This document shows, piece after piece, positions 19,325 through 51,166 of a stretch of DNA of 64,000 nt. The translations under genes were made by a program, and so were the position numbers. Under the pieces are notes generated by a model, which did not search any database, had not been told where the DNA came from, and saw only the letters and a list, made by a program, of their open reading frames with translations. This stretch comes from Bacteroidota bacterium. GTDB taxonomy: Bacteria > Bacteroidota > Bacteroidia > Chitinophagales > Chitinophagaceae. The number at the start of each line of letters is the position of its first letter. The first letter of the stretch is position 1. The stretch covers positions 9,318 through 73,317 of the forward strand of contig JAKQJG010000128.1 of the NCBI GenBank assembly GCA_029561305.1, read 5' to 3'.

Positions 19325-22153
19325 TCACAAAAACCGGCCTGTATGACTTTTCTTTTCCTTCTTCAGATCTTCCGGTTTGCCGGTAAATACAACATGACCA
19401 CCAGCATCGCCTGCTTCCGGACCAAGGTCAATTACCCAGTCTGCGCTCTTGATAACATCAGTATTGTGCTCAATTACCAGAATAGTATGCCCCTGCTCTA
19501 TTAATGCATTGAAAGAAGTCAATAATTTTTTTATATCATGAAAATGAAGCCCAGTAGTGGGTTCATCAAAGATGAAAAGAATTTGTCCGTTTGCCTTACC
19601 CTTACCGAGAAAAGAGGCCAGTTTCACCCTTTGTGCTTCTCCACCGGATAATGTATTGCTGGATTGCCCCAATTTTACATATCCAAGGCCAACATTACTT
19701 AATGGCTGTATCTTTCTTGCCACTTCAGGATCGCCTGCAAAAAAATCAATCGCCTCATCTACACTCATTTCCAATACATCATAAATGCTTTTCTCTTTGT
19801 AGGTAACTTCCAATACTTCCTCTTTGAATTTTTTTCCGCCGCAAACTTCACAGGTCAAATGCACATCTGCCAAAAACTGCATTTCCACTATTTGTTCACC
19901 CTCGCCACTGCAGGCATCACACCTTCCCCCTTCTACGTTAAAGGAAAAGTGCTTTGGCTGAAAGCCCCGTATCTTACTCAGCGGCTGCCTGCTAAACAGT
20001 TCCCTTATCTCATCATAGGCTTTTATGTAGGTAACGGGGTTGCTCCTCGAAGATTTGCCGATCGGGTTCTGGTCAACCATTTCAATTTGAGAAATAGCAT
20101 CTATATCACCTGTTATGGCTTTGTGAATGCCAGCTTTATCAACGCCCTCCCCTTTTATTTTCTGTAAAGCCGGGTATAAAATTTGTTTTACCAGGGTTGT
20201 TTTGCCACTGCCACTTACACCACTCACCACGCAAAGCAGACCCAATGGGAATTCGACTGAAATATTTTTTAAGTTGTTTTGTCTTGCGCCCTCTACTTTA
20301 ATACTTCGTTTCCATTTGCGCACATTTTTCGGCGGTTCTATTTTAAACACACCTGATAAGTATTTCCCAGTAAGACTTTTATCATTTGCAATCAGTTCAT
20401 CATAATTACCGGCGGCCACCACTTCACCGCCCAGGTGGCTGGCCAGTGGCCCCATGTCAATAATATGATCTGCCTCCCTCATCATCATCTCATCATGCTC
20501 CACTACTACAACAGTGTTGCCCAAATCCCTCAATTCTTTCAATACTGCAATTAACCGCTCTGTATCGCGGCTGTGCAGGCCAATACTTGGCTCATCTAAT
20601 ATATATAATGAATTGGTGAGATTACTGCCAAGACTCCTGGTTAGCTGGATACGCTGGCTTTCTCCACCACTCAATGAATTGGCCAGCCGGTTGAGCGTAA
20701 GATATCCCAAGCCAACATCCATCAATGTTTTAATCCGGTGATTTACTTCCAGCAGGATCCTTTTCGCCACCTGCCCGTCGTAAGCGGTTAATTCAAGTTT
20801 GCTAAACCATGTTTGCAGATCTCTTACTGGCATATTGCACAACTCCCCGATATGCTTTTCTGCTACCTTAACATACAGTGCTTCTTTGCGAAGGCGGTAA
20901 CCTTTGCAATCTGTACATTGTGTTCTGCCACGATACCGGCTTAGTAAAACCCGGTATTGTACTTTATATAAATTTTGTTCAACTTCTTTGAAGAAATCAT
21001 TTATCCCTAATACATTACTACGTCCTTCCCATAATTGCTGCAGTTGTTCTTCTGTAAGGTCAATAATGGGCTTATGAATAGGAAAACCAAAACTCTTTGC
21101 TCCTTTTATAAACTGTTCCCGCCACCAGCCCAGCTTTTCACCCTTCCAGGGAGCCACCGCTTCTTCGTACAGGCTTAACTGTTTGTTGGGGATGATCAGG
21201 TCTGCATCCAGGCCGAGTATTTGAGAAAAACCTTCGCAGGTGGGGCAGGCGCCAAAAGGATTATTAAACGAAAATAAATTGGGAACAGGCTCCTCAAACT
21301 GTATCCCATCCATTTCAAACTTATTACTGAAATGAAGCATTTGTTTCCCGTTCACTTCAACCAGCATTTCACCTTCACCTTCATAAAAAGCGGTACCAAC
21401 AGAATCTGAAATCCGGTGTATATCATCCTCATCAAACGCCTTTACAACAAGCCTGTCTACTAACAAAAACATTTTTTCAGGAAGAGACTTATCCGGCATC
21501 TCTAACAATTCTTCAATACGTGAAGGTTCTAAAGCCCCTCCTTTGGCCCCGTCCTGACGGGACGGGGAGGCCGTTCTTGAAAAACCCTTTTGCAGTAAAA
21601 TATTAAGCTCTTCCTTCGTATTACGCTTTGCATGTTTTTTGAAAGGCACAACAATCAGAACCCTGTCACCTTCGTTTAATTCCTTAATTGCTTTCACCAC
21701 ATCTGCCACATCATCTTTTTTTACCTCTCTTCCTGTTACGGGTGAAATAGTTTTCCCCACCCGTGCATATAGTAAGCGTAAGTAGTCGTAAATCTCCGTC
21801 ATACTGCCAACCGTGCTTCTTGGAGTACGGGTAATCACTTTTTGTTCTATAGCAATAGCAGGACACAAACCTTTGATATAATCCACATCCGGCTTATTCA
21901 TTCGTTGCATGAACTGCCGTGCATATGCACTCAGGCTTTCTGCATAACGGCGTTGTCCTTCTGCAAAAAGAGTATCGATCGTGAGCGAAGATTTGCCAGA
22001 ACCTGACACGCCTGTCACCACCACCAGCTTGTTTCGTGGTATCGTAACCGTTACATCCTTCAGGTTATGCACTCTTGCACCTTTTATCTGTATCCCGTCT
22101 GTTGCAGAAAGCGAAGATTTTGTAACAGTCTGTAATTTTTCCTTGGTTGCCAT
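19325..22153 (-). CDS. uvrA: Excinuclease ABC subunit A
   Basis: Two GVSGSGK Walker A motifs, two LSGGE signatures, Zn fingers; start MATKE at 22153 preferred to the ORF-track 22321. Confidence 0.97.
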   Translation of the reverse strand: MATKEKLQTVTKSSLSATDGIQIKGARVHNLKDVTVTIPRNKLVVVTGVSGSGKSSLTIDTLFAEGQRRYAESLSAYARQFMQRMNKPDVDYIKGLCPAIAIEQKVITRTPRSTVGSMTEIYDYLRLLYARVGKTISPVTGREVKKDDVADVVKAIKELNEGDRVLIVVPFKKHAKRNTKEELNILLQKGFSRTASPSRQDGAKGGALEPSRIEELLEMPDKSLPEKMFLLVDRLVVKAFDEDDIHRISDSVGTAFYEGEGEMLVEVNGKQMLHFSNKFEMDGIQFEEPVPNLFSFNNPFGACPTCEGFSQILGLDADLIIPNKQLSLYEEAVAPWKGEKLGWWREQFIKGAKSFGFPIHKPIIDLTEEQLQQLWEGRSNVLGINDFFKEVEQNLYKVQYRVLLSRYRGRTQCTDCKGYRLRKEALYVKVAEKHIGELCNMPVRDLQTWFSKLELTAYDGQVAKRILLEVNHRIKTLMDVGLGYLTLNRLANSLSGGESQRIQLTRSLGSNLTNSLYILDEPSIGLHSRDTERLIAVLKELRDLGNTVVVVEHDEMMMREADHIIDMGPLASHLGGEVVAAGNYDELIANDKSLTGKYLSGVFKIEPPKNVRKWKRSIKVEGARQNNLKNISVEFPLGLLCVVSGVSGSGKTTLVKQILYPALQKIKGEGVDKAGIHKAITGDIDAISQIEMVDQNPIGKSSRSNPVTYIKAYDEIRELFSRQPLSKIRGFQPKHFSFNVEGGRCDACSGEGEQIVEMQFLADVHLTCEVCGGKKFKEEVLEVTYKEKSIYDVLEMSVDEAIDFFAGDPEVARKIQPLSNVGLGYVKLGQSSNTLSGGEAQRVKLASFLGKGKANGQILFIFDEPTTGLHFHDIKKLLTSFNALIEQGHTILVIEHNTDVIKSADWVIDLGPEAGDAGGHVVFTGKPEDLKKEKKSHTGRFL
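21530..21572 (-). repeat. In-frame palindromic repeat inside uvrA (encodes ASPSRQDGAKGGAL)
   Basis: TAAAGCCCCTCCTT...GGGGAGGCC ends are identical to the metG copy at 49581-49614; internal hairpin CCCCGTCC-TGACG-GGACGGGG. Confidence 0.85.
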
Positions 22154-45025: not shown

Positions 45026-45058
45026 CACCCAGTCTGACCGTCCTGGTCTGACTGGGTG
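45026..45058 (+). repeat. REP palindrome, left
   Basis: CACCCAGTC-T-GACC-GTCCT-GGTC-T-GACTGGGTG. Confidence 0.9.
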
Positions 45059-45100
45059 TGTTGGAAACAGGAGATCATCTTTTCGAATACTTCAACTAAG

Positions 45101-45715
45101 TCAATCATCTTTTTCAAAAGATCCTAAAAAGTCTGTGTTAAAGCCTTTTTGTGTAAGACCACCAGACTGATAACCACAATACATGACGGCTAGTTCTTTA
45201 TTACATAAAGTTCCATTTCTTTTTCCGATATAATCACAGTATGATGAATATACCCAATGCTCAGGCTGTTTCACTAAACCAGCTAGTACCGGATTTTGGT
45301 GTATATAATCAAAACAACGGAAGCAATAATCCTGTAAACTATAGCGATGCTTTACAACCCAATCAGATTCTGCAACATTTTTCGCTTTGGTTTTTTGCCG
45401 GAATAAAGAACCCGTTCGTTTATACCGCTTATTGAAAACCCTTGCATACCCACTAAGCAATTTCCGGACTCCATTTGTGAGTTTTTCGATTTCAAGACCA
45501 CCCTGCTTCATTTTAGCACAACTTGCCTCGCCAGTGTACACCAGTAAGTGAAAGTGATTTGGCATCAGGCACCAAGCGATAATTTCAGTATTACTTTGAA
45601 CCTGCGTTCTTAGCATACGGAGAAAAATCAGGTAATCTTCATCACAACTAAAAATTCCCTGGCGATTGTTTCCCTGGTTGTAAATGTGATAGATATTATT
45701 GGGAAGAAACTTCAT
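45101..45715 (-). CDS. REP-associated tyrosine transposase (RAYT, HUH/Y1)
   Basis: YHIYNQGNN, CLMPNHFHLL (HUH), YIHQNPV (catalytic Tyr), WVYSSY. Confidence 0.92.
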   Translation of the reverse strand: MKFLPNNIYHIYNQGNNRQGIFSCDEDYLIFLRMLRTQVQSNTEIIAWCLMPNHFHLLVYTGEASCAKMKQGGLEIEKLTNGVRKLLSGYARVFNKRYKRTGSLFRQKTKAKNVAESDWVVKHRYSLQDYCFRCFDYIHQNPVLAGLVKQPEHWVYSSYCDYIGKRNGTLCNKELAVMYCGYQSGGLTQKGFNTDFLGSFEKDD

Positions 45716-45797
45716 TCGTTATCCAGTCAAACCATGACGGTTAGACTGAATTTGAAGATACGAACTTTAGCAGTATTTAGAATAGCGAAGAGCTTGC

Positions 45798-45836
45798 CCC
45801 GTCCCAGTCAGACCGGGACGGTCAGACTGGGACGGG
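45798..45836 (-). repeat. REP palindrome, right
   Basis: CCCGTCCCAGTC-A-GACC-GGGAC-GGTC-A-GACTGGGACGGG. Confidence 0.9.
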
Positions 45837-45847
45837 AAGTCTGGGTG

Positions 45848-48226
45848 TTAGTTCCTCAATGGCTTTCCTGTTTTCAACACACTCTGTATCCTCTCCAATG
45901 ATTTCTTTTCGCCACACAAAGAAAGAAAGGCTTCTCTTTCCAAATCCAATAAGTATTGCTCCGTTACAAGTGTTGGCTCGCTCAGATCACCTCCAGCCAT
46001 TACGTAGGCTAGTTTTTTTGCAACGGTTACATCATGCTCCGTGGCGTAATTAGCAGTACGCATGCCATGAATGCCCGCCAGCATGGCACCCAATGCACTG
46101 CGGCCGAGTACTTTGATATCTTTTCTTTGAACAGGCATTACATACCCATCATCATACATTTCGATCACCGCCTGTTTTGCTTCACTGATCCTTCTTCCAA
46201 TATTGATACTTACCTGGTCCCTTCCTTTTCTATAGATGCCTAACTCATACGCTTCATGAGCAGAAGTGGCAACTTTTGCTGTAGCGATGGTGAGGAAACG
46301 GTTTTGTAAAGTATTGGTATCCACTTCACCACTGTGCAGTTCGTCGCTGGCTCTTAATACAAATTCTTTTGTGCCGCCACCACCTGGAATAACGCCAATA
46401 CCCACTTCCACCAAACCGGTATAGGTTTCAGCAGCAGCCACTACTTTATCTGCATGCAGACTTAACTCACATGCACCACCCAACGCTAATCCATGAGGGG
46501 CCACCACAACAGGGATGGAAGAATACCTTGCTCTCATCATGCTGTTCTGGAACATGCGGATGGCCATATCGATCTCATCATAATCCTGTTCTATGGCCAG
46601 CATGAATATCATACCTACATTGGCACCCGCAGAAAAATTCTGCCCTTCGTTGGCAATAACAAGCCCTTTGTATTTTTCTTCTGCCAGGGAAATGGAGCGT
46701 TGAATACCTTCCAGTACTTCTCCTCCTATGCTGCCCATTTTAGTGTACCATTCAAGGCCAAGCACATCATCCCCGAGATGATAAGTGCGGCAGGCACTGT
46801 TTTTCCAAACGGTTTGGTTATCGAAATTCTTCATTACAATAAAGGCATCGCCGCCTGGCAATGCTTTATAGATCTTGCTACTAACGTCGTAACATAGCCG
46901 CTTTCCATTCTCTACTTTATAAAACGATTTGTTGCCGGCAGCAGTCATTTCCTCTACCCACGCAGCCACTTTAAAACCGGCTGCTTTCATAGCTTCTGTT
47001 GTTTTTGCCACACCCAATACGTCCCAGCTTTCAAAAGCACCAATTTCCCAGCCAAAGCCGGCCATCATGGCATCATCCACACGGTATATTTCATCACTTA
47101 TTTCAGGAATACGTTGACTGATATAGGAGAATAAATTGAAGTGAAATAACCTGTAGAACTCGCCTGCTTTATCAGTACCGGAACAGAGTGCTTTTAATCT
47201 TGTTTTCAGGTCTTCAATGGGTTTGGCTGCTTCCAGTGTTGCAAACTTTGGTTTTTGTCTTGGGCCGTATTCAAGTGTTTGTAAATTCAGCGTAAGAATT
47301 TCTTTTTCGCCGGCTGCAGTTTTTGTCTTTTTAAAGAAGCCTTGTTTTGTTTTATCGCCCAGCCAGTTATTAGCAACCATTTTATCCAACCATGCCGGAA
47401 TAGCAAACATGGACTTCGCTTCATCATCAGGACAATTATCAGCAACACCCTTCGCTACTTTAACCAACGTATCAATACCCACTACATCTGCTGTGCGGAA
47501 AGTGGCAGATTTAGGGCGGCCAACAACCGGCCCGGTCAATGCATCAACTTCATCTACATTCAGACCTAACTTCTCCATTGTATTCATGATCGCCATCATG
47601 CCAAACACACCAACACGATTGGCGATAAATGCAGGCGTGTCCTTGCATAATACCGTTGTCTTGCCCAATACAAGGTCGCCATAGTTCATTAAAAAATCAA
47701 CAACGGACTGGTCAGTATGCGGTGTAGGAATGATCTCTAATAACCGCAGGTATCTTGGCGGATTAAAAAAGTGTGTACCGCAGAAATGCTTTTTAAAATC
47801 ATCGCTCCTTGCTTCGGCCATTAAGTGAATAGGAATGCCTGATGTGTTGGAAGTAATTAATGTGCCGGGCTTGCGGTACTTTTCTACTTCCGTAAAAACA
47901 GCTTGCTTGATGTCCAGTCTTTCCACCACTACTTCAATCACCCAATCGCAATCAGCGATCTTCTTCATGTCATCGGTAAAGTTGCCGGTAGCAATTCTCT
48001 TTACCACATCCTGTGTATATACGGGCGATGGATTTGATTTGATCGCCGCTGTTAAAGCATCATTTACAATTTTATTTTTTTCCGCGGACTTTGCATCAGC
48101 AGGCAGATCTTTTGGTTGAATGTCTAATAACAACACCTGCAAACCCACGCCTGCAAAATGACAGGCAATGCGGCTGCCCATAACACCACTTCCTAAAACG
48201 GCTACTTTTTTGATTGTCCTTTTCAT
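45848..48226 (-). CDS. fadN: 3-hydroxyacyl-CoA dehydrogenase / enoyl-CoA hydratase (FadN-type)
   Basis: GSGVMGSRIA, EVVVERLDIK, SNTSGIP, HFFNPPRY, C-terminal crotonase ALGGACE. Confidence 0.93.
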   Translation of the reverse strand: MKRTIKKVAVLGSGVMGSRIACHFAGVGLQVLLLDIQPKDLPADAKSAEKNKIVNDALTAAIKSNPSPVYTQDVVKRIATGNFTDDMKKIADCDWVIEVVVERLDIKQAVFTEVEKYRKPGTLITSNTSGIPIHLMAEARSDDFKKHFCGTHFFNPPRYLRLLEIIPTPHTDQSVVDFLMNYGDLVLGKTTVLCKDTPAFIANRVGVFGMMAIMNTMEKLGLNVDEVDALTGPVVGRPKSATFRTADVVGIDTLVKVAKGVADNCPDDEAKSMFAIPAWLDKMVANNWLGDKTKQGFFKKTKTAAGEKEILTLNLQTLEYGPRQKPKFATLEAAKPIEDLKTRLKALCSGTDKAGEFYRLFHFNLFSYISQRIPEISDEIYRVDDAMMAGFGWEIGAFESWDVLGVAKTTEAMKAAGFKVAAWVEEMTAAGNKSFYKVENGKRLCYDVSSKIYKALPGGDAFIVMKNFDNQTVWKNSACRTYHLGDDVLGLEWYTKMGSIGGEVLEGIQRSISLAEEKYKGLVIANEGQNFSAGANVGMIFMLAIEQDYDEIDMAIRMFQNSMMRARYSSIPVVVAPHGLALGGACELSLHADKVVAAAETYTGLVEVGIGVIPGGGGTKEFVLRASDELHSGEVDTNTLQNRFLTIATAKVATSAHEAYELGIYRKGRDQVSINIGRRISEAKQAVIEMYDDGYVMPVQRKDIKVLGRSALGAMLAGIHGMRTANYATEHDVTVAKKLAYVMAGGDLSEPTLVTEQYLLDLEREAFLSLCGEKKSLERIQSVLKTGKPLRN

Positions 48227-48385
48227 ACGACTTGATTTAAGCCCTTTTGGGGTCCAGGGCAAATTAGTTAGTTAAACAACTATTTTACGAAATTAAGGGA
48301 TTCTGTTTTCTGCAAAAAATAAATGATTGCTAACCCCGTCAGCGGTTGCAAACCCTGAGGGTGGTTAAAGTAAATTCTATGAAAC

Positions 48386-48417
48386 AAAAAACCACAACCG
48401 TTTACAGTTGTGGCTTT
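48386..48417 (-). terminator. Intrinsic terminator after metG
   Basis: CCACAAC/GTTGTGG stem with a T-run on the minus strand. Confidence 0.7.
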
Positions 48418-48437
48418 GCAAAAAAAATTAATCCTGT

Positions 48438-51029
48438 TTAACTGACACCACTTCCAGCATCAATCACCGATTCAGGGCTTACAAAATGCAATTTGCCGGT
48501 TTTATCTTCAGCCATCAATATCATGCCATTGCTTTCAATACCCCTCATTTTACGGGGAGCGAGGTTAGCCACTACAACAACCTGTTTACCAACAATAGTT
48601 TCGGGTTGGTAATGCATCGCAATACCGCTTACTACGGTCCTGGTTTCAAAACCCATGTCTATTTGCAGCTTTAATAACTTATCTGCTTTTTCTACTTTTC
48701 CGGCAGAAATAATTGTTCCGACTTTCAAATCGATCCTGGCAAAATCGTCGTAAACGATTTCGGGTTTTAAAGCCTCCCTGCCCTCCAAAGGAGGGTTCCT
48801 GGTGTCGGATAACTTCTTAGACTCCTCGACTTTCACAGGGACCAAGGTCCCTCCTTTGGAGGAATTTAGGGAGGCCCCCGCTTTTAATTTTTCTACTTGT
48901 GCCGCTATTTCTGCATCTTCAATTTTCCTGAATAGTAATTGTGGTTCTCTTAAGCTATAACCCACACTCAGCAAATTAATTTTACCAGCGTTATTCCAAT
49001 CCAGCATTTTATCCACCACTTTCATCATGTACAGCATTTTTTTGGCTGTGGTTGGTAAAAATGGATTGATAAGAATGGCGAGGTTGGCTGTTAACTGTAA
49101 GCAGAGATGCAAACAGTTGTCGATGCTTTTTTGAGCCTCCCTGCCCTCCAAAAGAGGGTTCTCGAAACCTGCAGTTGTTTGTTTCTTTTCGTTTAGCTTA
49201 GAAAGAATGGTATTTAAAACATAATCAGTCTTATTTAATACGTCATCGTTAGTAAACCGCAGTACTTCAAATCCAAACTTATTTAACTCTGCCGTCCTGA
49301 TCGCATCACTCAGTTTATTTTCCGGGATCTCATGTATCAATCCATCAACTTCAACAATAAGCTTTTGTGAAAGACAAACAAAATCTGCAATGTAGGTGCC
49401 AATGATATGTTGCCTTCTAAACTTAAAACTGTCCAGTTTTTTCCCTCTTACTATTTGCCATAATAAATCCTCCGCTTCTGTAGGATTCGACCTGTGCTCT
49501 TCAACAAATTTCTTCAGCAACCCATAAGTTACAGTATCCGCTGTTTGATATTCATAAGGACTGTTTGCTTTCGCAGAGTCTAAAGCCCCTCCTTCGGAGG
49601 GGTTTGGGGAGGCCACTTTCTTCGCTACAATCCATGGCTCTTTTTCCTGCATATACTTATTTCCCTTCCTGCTCAGGTCAATCACTTCAAACAAGGCATC
49701 TCTGAATTTATATTCCTCTAATAAACCTTCCACTTTCACTTTTGCATTTTCGATGTCTGCAATCAGCACTTTATCTTTTTCATCTAAAATATCTTCATGT
49801 AATTTTGGAACCTTGCCTCCGCATAGTTTATGCATCAATACCCATGTTCTATTCACAAAATTTCCAAAGATGCTTACCAGTTCACTGTTGTTCCTGTCCT
49901 GGAAATCCTTCCAGGTAAAATCATTATCCTTTGTCTCCGGTGCATTGGCACAGAGAACGTACCGGAGTACATCTTCACAACCTTCAAAGTCTTTGATGTA
50001 TTCGTTTACCCATACTGCCCAGTTGCGGCTGGTACTTACTTTTTCCCCTTCAATATTTAAAAACTCATTGGCAGGAACATTATCCGGCAAAGCAAATCCG
50101 CCATGTGCTTTCAACATCGCAGGGAAAATGATGCAATGAAAAACGATATTGTCTTTGCCAATAAAGTGAACCAGTTTTGTATCTTCTTTACACCAGTAGT
50201 CGGCCCATTTATCGGTCAGTTCCTTTGTTGCAGAGATATAACCGATCGGTGCGTCAAACCACACATACAATACTTTTCCTTCTGCATCCGGCAGCGGCAC
50301 TTTAATTCCCCAGTTGCTGTCCCTTGTCATGGCCCTGCTATGCAATCCGCTGTCGAGCCAGCTCTTGCATTGTCCATATACGTTGTTCTTCCATTCTTTG
50401 TGTCCTTCAATTATCCATTCTTTCAGCCACGGTTCATAATTCTGTAGTGGAAAATACCAATGCGTTGTTTTTTTCTTTACCGGTACCGCATCACTCAACG
50501 CACTTTTGGGATTGATCAGTTGCTCCGGCGATAGACTTGTTCCGCATTTTTCACACTGGTCGCCATAGGCATTTGGGTTGGCACAAACCGGGCAGGTGCC
50601 GGTGATATAACGATCGGCCAAAAACGTGTTTGTCTTTTCATCAAAATACTGCTCCGTTTCTTTCTCCTCAAACAAACCATCATCATACAGTTTCTTAAAA
50701 AATGCCGATGCTGTATCGTGATGTACTTTATTGGAGGTACGGGAATAGATATCAAACGAGATACCCATTTGCTCCATACTTTCTTTGATGATGGCATGAT
50801 AACGGTCAACCACCTGTTGCGGTGTGATGCCTTCCTTCATGGCACGGATGGTAATGGGCACACCATGCTCATCGCTGCCACCGATAAATTTCACGTCTTT
50901 CTTTTGTGCTCTTAAATAACGTACATAAATATCCGCAGGCAAATAACATCCTGCCAGGTGGCCAATATGTACCGGGCCATTGGCATAGGGAAGCGCTGCT
51001 GTAACTAAATATCTGGATGGATGGTTCAT
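48438..51029 (-). CDS. metG: Methionine--tRNA ligase carrying an in-frame DUF559 insert and repeat-derived linker
   Basis: [12 protein letters not shown], Zn knuckle, KVSTS (KMSKS), C-terminal Trbp111-like domain [15 protein letters not shown]; start MNHPS at 51029. Confidence 0.97.
48771..48876. repeat. In-frame inverted repeat doublet in the metG linker (miniature element)
   Basis: Plus strand GCCTCCCTGCCCTCCAAAGGAGGG (48772-48795) and minus strand GCCTCCCTAAATTCCTCCAAAGGAGGG (48849-48875), 53-bp spacer. Confidence 0.88.
49134..49614 (-). mobile_element. Repeat-flanked DUF559 (Vsr-like endonuclease) cassette inserted in frame in metG
   Basis: [30 protein letters not shown]...KLIVEVDG..H...D..RT..L...GF.VLRFTN between inverted repeats at 49581-49614 and 49134-49161. 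Confidence 0.85.
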
Positions 51030-51166
51030 TTTTTTGAATCTGTCTTTTGTGCTACTATTAAACATCGTTCTGTCACTTCCCGAAAGCATTCGGGATACTG
51101 GTACAACTACAGGCAACAAAACAACGGCTGCAAAAATACCTTAATTGAGCCCAACGAACAAACCAC

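Follow-up and report, generated by a model that had tools for sequence, protein, structure and literature searches.

How does a repeat element with no gene of its own come to form part of an essential enzyme, and how is it related to the nuclease cassette that lies in the same gene? This question is raised by metG, the gene of methionyl-tRNA synthetase (MetRS; the protein encoded here is called MetG), in a genome of the family Chitinophagaceae (Bacteroidota). The stretch analysed, hereafter the window, comprises 64,000 nucleotides of contig JAKQJG010000128.1 (assembly GCA_029561305.1), and positions refer to it unless another contig is named. Two inserts are found in metG: a 105-bp inverted pair of hairpin arms without cargo, here called the doublet, and, 260 bp upstream of it, a cassette with a DUF559 domain that is bracketed by arms of the same family. 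The doublet, a cargo-less form of a palindromic repeat family that is associated with DUF559, is probably an old, inherited insert that now serves as a linker of MetRS, and not a recent product of the cassette. Orthologous copies sit in at least 20 MetG variants, many of which have no cassette, and the linker doublet is therefore regarded as old and as not tied to the cassette. Judged from sequence comparison, the old insertion replaced the native linker between the anticodon-binding and the C-terminal tRNA-binding domains and has been inherited in many species of a genus that is probably Ferruginibacter.

The Doublet in the MetG Linker

The doublet corresponds to MetG residues 749-783 (35 amino acids), contains no stop codon, and has a single open frame on each strand (GCC-TCC-C). 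In a repeat search its arms appeared as an inverted pair with 86% complementarity over 22 nt and about 52-53 nt between the hairpin stems. An initial annotation of this DNA had described a nuclease-less inverted arm pair in the MetG linker with a spacer of about 53 bp; repeat search and translation agree with it, and codon boundaries place the end at 48875, not at 48876. The B-type arm consists, on the plus strand, of the tail GCCTCCC (48772-48778), TG, the stem CCCTCC (48781-48786), an AAA loop, the stem GGAGGG (48790-48795), and TTC. The A'-type arm reads GCCTCCCT-AAA-TTCCTCC-AAA-GGAGGGA on the gene strand. When treated as single-stranded DNA, the doublet is predicted to fold with -27.8 kcal/mol (z = -4.1, with 0 of 200 shuffled sequences as stable), and a long hairpin is obtained on either strand. 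The spacer is weakly palindromic in this genome. The GC content is 55% in the doublet, 60% in the arms, and 42% in metG.

Two direct repeats relate the doublet to the cassette. One, of 34 nt and 91% identity, joins 48765-48798 with 49128-49161 and includes the 27/28 match between 48771-48798 and 49134-49161; the other, of 47 nt and 79% identity, joins 48830-48876 with 49568-49614 and includes a 12/17 match of the inner flanks. A 27-nt arm query with up to three mismatches matched only the doublet and the cassette in the window, and none of 100 dinucleotide shuffles was matched. A weak nhmmer match of the arm model (E = 3.7e-4) was also recorded at 21521-21572 (contig C278:30838-30889). The Rfam scan of 48000-50000 gave nothing but a chance match to mir-3661 (E = 0.53), and a known RNA family is therefore not involved there.

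Pfam assigns residues 37-425 of MetG to the class I catalytic domain, residues 537-642 to a DUF559 domain (E = 2.3e-33) that splits the anticodon-binding domain, and residues 798-889 to a tRNA_bind domain, which follows the doublet. The DUF559 domain covers approximately 49194-49511. Neither a Hint or intein domain (Pfam) nor an intron (Rfam) was detected at the metG insert, and the frame is open throughout. The AlphaFold2 model of MetG, built with 69 sequences, is of moderate quality, with a mean predicted local distance difference test score (pLDDT) of 66 and a predicted template modelling score of 0.43. Folds are obtained in this model for the DUF559 core and the domains on either side, while pLDDT is below 50 at residues 748-794 and in both cassette arms, which across the doublet agrees with a linker that is disordered and tolerated. 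Bacterial MetRS carries its C-terminal domain on a flexible tether, as a dispensable appendix for tRNA binding and dimerisation. For annotation, it matters that such inserts inflate the lengths of aminoacyl-tRNA synthetases and create odd "fusion" domain calls.

Alternative Forms at Three Sites of MetG

The present genome carries the label G000, and its relatives are given by G or P numbers. In G000, G101, and G048, the linker doublets are identical in length and position and fill the whole stretch from EKLKAG to (L/S)K(P/S)EI.FDDF; therefore, the native linker was replaced and not merely interrupted. Comparison of linker lengths in orthologous MetG, proposed in the initial annotation, does reveal an insert against the native linkers of relatives (about 20-30 residues), but one that takes the place of the native linker. 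G101 carries the cassette together with an orthologous doublet of the same length (83% identical), the B arm of which matches that of G000 at 25/25 positions. G048 carries the doublet and its cassette site is empty, and P0003 and P0004 are among the other cassette-less MetG variants with an orthologous linker doublet. Of 120 MetG homologues, 29 or more carry arms in the linker; 12 of these carry no other insert, and in most arm-bearing homologues the linker consensus begins with ASLNPSKGGT..EPAK....SK..... (dots, variable positions). No target-site duplication or common target motif was found at the linker junctions of G000, G101, G048, G045, and G118.

MetG has three recurrently occupied sites, located in the anticodon domain (site 1), the catalytic domain (site 2), and the linker (site 3), and at each of them the native loop is replaced by the insert (Table 1). 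In the 120 homologues, 12 cassettes and 9 doublets occupy site 1, and 8 cassettes and 5 doublets (or single arms) occupy site 2. Empty, solo-arm, doublet, and cassette alleles alternate between species at the three sites. The MetG of G078 has cargo-less doublets exactly at the spots where the cassette resides in G000 (site 1) and in G012 and G001 (site 2); these two doublets are near-copies of each other, which shows that doublets multiply as doublets. The three sites present a natural allelic series, with nuclease-bearing and nuclease-less forms in different species, and offer a compact, testable system in which the gene-less form took over the job of a protein linker.

Arms have decayed or been replaced in the MetG orthologues of G048, P0019, and P0107, where the frame is open without a sign of loss, and decay or a nested palindrome was observed in the B arm of G048, P0005, P0013, P0019, and P0107. 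The nested palindrome (CTCTCCCGATACATTCGGGAGAG; peptide PLPIHSGES) is small and sits in the loop of the B-arm hairpin in the G048 linker (contig C78; L076/L086), P0005, and P0013; therefore, the arms themselves appear to be insertion targets. It was also considered that the spacer of the doublet might be native linker enclosed by two independent solo arms, given its likeness to the G006 linker KMEENKSSST. This possibility was rejected because the inner flanks are a family-wide motif, doublets of 105 bp occur in other genes, and the spacer of the doublet that abuts the cassette in G044 and G011 resembles that of the linker doublet. In G011, a complete doublet abuts the 5' end of the cassette. 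The sole MetG copy found in that genome (L003, C276:11212-13881) has an in-frame TAA within the DUF559 cassette; a sequencing error or a split MetRS might account for this stop codon, or it might hint at a bypass of the insert.

Nucleotide Conservation of the Arms

Nine orthologous linker doublets were compared codon by codon. The two arms showed 97% and 94% nucleotide identity, and where the residue was conserved, the synonymous codons were identical in 95% and 86% of cases. The corresponding values for flanking, well-conserved parts of MetG were 77-79% and 51-59%, and the nucleotide identity of the spacer was 58%. The conservation of the arms exceeds what the protein would need, since a flexible linker offers no protein-level reason for invariant arms; it indicates either that the DNA or RNA is under constraint or that other copies continue to homogenise the arms. 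The near-invariance at synonymous positions suggests that something still acts on the DNA.

The Arm Family in This Genome

Aligned copies define an arm unit of about 45 nt, which is composed of a C-rich tail, 2-5 nt, a hairpin of 6-7 bp (CCCTCC/GGAGGG), and an inner motif approximating CTTTAGAACCTGCG. Based on sequence and peptide, the arms can be categorized as subtype A (GCCTCCCC-AAA-CCCCTCC; peptide ASPNPSxGGA), subtype A' (GCCTCCCT-AAA-TCCCTCC; ASLNPSKGG), and subtype B (GCCTCCC-TG-CCCTCC; NPPLEGREA, read in reverse). The tail mirrors the pyrimidine strand of the stem in every subtype. The cassette and the doublet in the DNA polymerase I gene (PolA) combine A with B, and the linker doublet combines A' with B. 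The 5' arm of the linker doublet belongs to the "TAAAT" subtype, with its nearest copies on contigs C263 and C295, and that of the cassette to the "CAAA" subtype. The peptides ASxNPSxGG and NPPLEGREA recur in MetG, PolA, AroA, and other proteins.

About 25 arm units were detected by nhmmer in the assembly (4.83 Mb, 443 contigs); therefore, no burst like that of REPINs (doublets of repetitive extragenic palindromes, REPs, that form hairpins) has taken place in this genome. Six inverted doublets, measuring 108-181 bp, were identified in the assembly. Doublets are in frame in the interdomain linker of PolA and in a TRAM/uracil-5-methyltransferase (an rRNA/tRNA methyltransferase), and a solo arm encoding NPPLEGREA is in frame in 5-enolpyruvylshikimate-3-phosphate (EPSP) synthase (AroA). 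Three arms at the 3' ends of open reading frames (ORFs) supply the final residues (ASPNPSxGGA) and the stop codon, the latter from an inner CTTAAG motif. The other DUF559 genes of the genome (C2, C111, and C332/C412) are free-standing, and each lies between arms of a family that differs in sequence and follows the same grammar.

Table 1. Coordinates of the metG features in the window, of further arm copies in the genome (G000), and of the three occupied sites of MetG
Feature	Location	Strand	Remarks
metG (methionyl-tRNA synthetase)	48438..51119	-	893-aa open frame; likely start M31 at 51029
Cargo-less doublet	48771..48875	-	whole interdomain linker; begins after EKLKAG
B-type arm, 3' arm in gene orientation	48772..48798	-	encodes NPPLEGREA
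Spacer, ~52 nt	48796..48847	-	inner-flank motifs of both arms and ~20 variable central bases
A'-type arm ("TAAAT" subtype), 5' arm in gene orientation	48848..48875	-	encodes ASLNSSKGG
DUF559 cassette, 480 bp	49134..49613	-	MetG residues 503-662; bracketed by A arm and B arm (NPLLEGREA)
In-frame copy, PolA	C299:8782-8942		doublet
In-frame copy, methyltransferase	C295:5382-5522		doublet
In-frame copy, EPSP synthase	C53:2504-2527		solo arm
ORF-ending arm	C126:2238-2265		
ORF-ending arm	C178:3233-3260		
ORF-ending arm	C406:39973-39996		
MetG site 1	after EPWIVAKK, anticodon domain		cassette in G000, G101, G022, G011, G042, G044, G045; doublet in G078; solo footprint in G001
MetG site 2	after WG(I/V)KVP, catalytic domain		cassette in G012, G001; doublet in G078
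MetG site 3	linker		doublets and solo arms; no cassette seen

Distribution in the Genus and Association With DUF559

DUF559 is a very large protein family to which, to our knowledge, no role has been assigned, and we take it to be Vsr-like, with a PD-(D/E)XK nuclease fold. Its co-occurrence with the arms was examined in 121 genomes of the genus. Of the 88 genomes with DUF559, 50 have the arm family, as against 2 of the 33 without DUF559 (Fisher p = 1.2e-7, Spearman 0.63), by statistics that ignore kinship and in a sample where every cassette adds two arms. Both arm-bearing genomes without DUF559 hold one copy each. The strict doublet pattern was found in 16 genomes, all 16 of which have DUF559. 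Many genomes hold far more arms than their cassettes could account for, such as G048 (19 arms, one DUF559) and G084 (14 arms, one DUF559). In an order-wide sample, the arm family was nearly limited to Chitinophagaceae, the family of the source genome. The initial annotation had named an absence of other doublets, or a repeat abundance uncorrelated with DUF559, as findings that would overturn it; further doublets exist in this and in related genomes, and arm abundance tracks DUF559.

Relatives carry doublets of about 105 bp at further loci, namely G011:C122 (a gene for an E1-type dehydrogenase), G078:C344, G084:C34, and G214:C18. Many B+B doublets of 100-106 bp were found in relatives as well, and a 107-bp A+B doublet in a sister genus. 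In two species, one and the same position of a 467-aa gene is occupied by a doublet of about 105 bp (G078:C344:6431-6535 and G084:C34:24265-24370); the opposite orientation and the differing arm subtypes of the two suggest independent hits on one site. The spacers of some doublets are near-perfect palindromes (L079).

Open frames of 800-1380 aa contain most of the DUF559 hits of the genus, and several ORFs have two DUF559 domains. Examples of such long ORFs are G067:C89:12575-14179, G087:C37:1588-3315, G065:C13, G081:C93, G114:C204, and G064:C41.

Origin of the Doublet and a Possible Mechanism

We infer that the doublets are non-autonomous partners of DUF559 nucleases and are mobilised by them. 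In the mechanism proposed here, the nuclease would recognise the folded or duplex arm and nick it, and repair of the break, or gene conversion, would then copy or homogenise the element. A nick-and-repair route of this kind would explain the missing target-site duplication, the lost residues of the native loop, and the near-identical arms with drifting spacers. It is possible, and is suggested here tentatively, that DUF559 and doublets of the hairpin or triplex type make up an undescribed class of selfish element, in which folded or mismatched arms are nicked in a Vsr-like manner, the element is copied by repair, and old copies are homogenised by continuing gene conversion. If the link between nuclease and repeat is true, it would assign a function to DUF559, provide a nuclease-driven counterpart to the systems formed by REPINs and REP-associated tyrosine transposases (RAYTs), and open a route for selfish DNA to remodel the loops and linkers of core enzymes. 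With continuing gene conversion, old copies in essential genes would not be dead relics.

Several points weigh against this account of an old, DUF559-associated insertion. The copy number of the arms in this genome is low, and no cassette was seen at the linker site. The MetG trees of the closest relatives, built from C-terminal and N-terminal parts, are star-like and poorly resolved, gains and losses are uncountable in them, and they do not distinguish repeated insertion from a single origin followed by losses or recombination. In the C-terminal tree, G020, which has a native linker, stands beside G000, a placement that would need recombination, or tree error. The A' arm of the G000 doublet has one C-to-T change in the stem (consensus TCCCTCC), by which the stem is weakened. 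The doublet can be read in frame as a peptide stretch without confident structure, its translation being assumed from the open frame alone. The conservation of the arms could stem instead from selection on the structure of mRNA or DNA or on the peptide, and the association of DUF559 with the arms is correlative and partly circular, as two arms come with each cassette.

Three other explanations were weighed. The initial annotation took the doublet for an internally deleted, non-autonomous derivative that forms an autonomous/non-autonomous pair with the cassette in one gene; read literally, a further copy of the adjacent cassette would have lost its interior recently in this genome. The similarity it noted is real: the 27/28 identity of the B arms was recovered by the repeat search, the A-then-B orientation is common to both inserts, and the 12/17 match of the inner flanks is present. 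The inner-flank motif, however, is family-wide and not specific to the cassette, copies in other genomes match the B arm just as closely, and the 5' arm is of another subtype, closer to copies on other contigs than to the cassette arm. Doublets of the same length and position reside in MetG variants without a cassette, so a recent deletion is highly improbable, and the two forms in one gene are a coincidence of two independently occupied permissive sites. Domestication by the host is another explanation, in which the arms are kept for MetRS or its mRNA (as a translational pause, a regulatory structure in RNA or DNA, or a Pro/Gly-rich linker) and no longer interact with a nuclease. The synonymous-site conservation and the strong predicted hairpin would be expected from it, and as the native linker is gone, the doublet must now serve as one. 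Yet arms are also found within unrelated genes, between genes, and on either side of nuclease genes, several MetG orthologues whose arms have decayed or been replaced show no evident loss of the ORF, and close relatives function with a native linker, which leaves this explanation improbable.

The main rival is that the doublet is primary and DUF559 a latecomer. Doublets would then have arisen and multiplied through host processes, for instance where folded DNA undergoes template switching or recombination, a selfish homing nuclease would have invaded the centre of a doublet, and the linker doublet would be of the ancestral type. This would agree with the excess of arms and doublets over cassettes in many genomes, with a nuclease gene that is always central, between two conserved inner motifs, with the near-perfect palindromes of some spacers, as a self-templated unit would predict, and with a linker site that has doublets and never cassettes; moreover, a family of homing endonucleases with the Vsr fold is known (I-Bth0305I, PMC3239194). 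A spread independent of the nuclease is nevertheless hard to square with single arm copies in just two of the 33 DUF559-free genomes, and arms of differing sequence families all accompany DUF559 genes. An origin of this kind is considered rather unlikely. The reading preferred here remains that of an old, inherited, cargo-less member of the DUF559-associated family.

Comparison With Known Systems

In-frame palindromic inserts in essential genes are known to us so far mainly from Rickettsia. A full-text literature search, judged from titles and abstracts, returned no paper that links DUF559 to repeats, and the pairing of nuclease and repeat appears to be undescribed. The arms and doublets resemble several known systems in part and lack defining features of each of them.

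The REPIN-RAYT systems are similar in that they consist of inverted doublets of hairpin repeats with a short spacer and without coding capacity, leave no target-site duplication, have repeats that also flank a small, low-copy enzyme gene, and show co-occurrence of repeat and enzyme across genomes. As in REPINs, the inverted doublet behaves as the replicating unit; six are present in G000, and relatives have copies of about 105 bp at a number of loci. They differ in that the gene flanked here presumably encodes a Vsr-like PD-(D/E)XK nuclease (DUF559) and not an HUH/Y1 transposase, that REPINs are extragenic whereas the present doublets are in frame inside metG, polA, and a methyltransferase gene, and that REPINs reach hundreds of copies and the arms tens. 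A RAYT gene is present in the window at 45026-45836, 3 kb from metG, between inverted CCCAGTCTGACCGTCCTGGTCTGACTGGG-type REPs, and represents a second, unrelated palindromic repeat system. This neighbour was considered as the partner of the doublet and rejected, because its flanking REPs, of the CCCAGTCTGACC type, are unrelated in sequence to the arms, which flank DUF559 instead. The label REPIN, which the initial annotation had used together with MITE (miniature inverted-repeat transposable element), therefore does not hold in the strict sense.

The same applies to the label MITE. Classical MITEs are likewise small, have terminal inverted repeats and no coding capacity of their own, and have a larger relative with the same ends; the doublet, with its arms and tails, is such a short non-coding element with terminal inverted repeats. 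In contrast, no target-site duplication accompanies it, native residues are replaced, and the larger form (the cassette) encodes solely a DUF559 nuclease domain and no transposase.

Rickettsia palindromic elements (RPEs) are palindromic repeats of about 100-150 bp that, in the parts of the source drawn on here, are described as lying in frame in unrelated housekeeping genes, in permissive loops, and as encoding a conserved peptide (PMC10969869). The present family belongs to another phylum and presumably also differs from RPEs in sequence; the same parts of that source name no partner enzyme (PMC10969869), whereas the arms here also bracket a nuclease gene, and alternative forms turn up time and again at one and the same site.

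The arms also share features with the intrastrand-triplex repeats TMECO/BoxC, which are built of three consecutive blocks, namely a pyrimidine tail in mirror order to the stem, followed by the pyrimidine and the purine strand of that stem, and are G/C-rich motifs tied to variable loci (Holder et al., 2015, PMC4666352). The search for potential triplexes allowed stem lengths of 6-15 nt and loop lengths of 1-6 nt (PMC4666352). The B arm (CCTCCC-TG-CCCTCC-AAA-GGAGGG) and the A' arm (CCTCCCT-AAA-T(T/C)CCTCC-AAA-GGAGGGA) have stems of 6-7 nt and loops of 2-4 nt and, as a sequence pattern, are potential triplexes. TMECO repeats are intergenic, with no mobility gene found nearby (PMC4666352), whereas the arms form inverted doublets, occur in coding sequence, and flank DUF559.

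The EDxHD homing endonucleases, represented by I-Bth0305I, are Vsr-fold nucleases of selfish elements as well, and one site in a conserved gene is recurrently occupied by them while relatives have empty alleles (PMC3239194). They reside, however, in introns or inteins that are removed from RNA or protein (PMC3239194), whereas the insert in MetG presumably stays in the protein, and the linker doublet has no nuclease at all. What is new is the three-site allelic series in one essential gene, together with the synonymous-site conservation of the arms.

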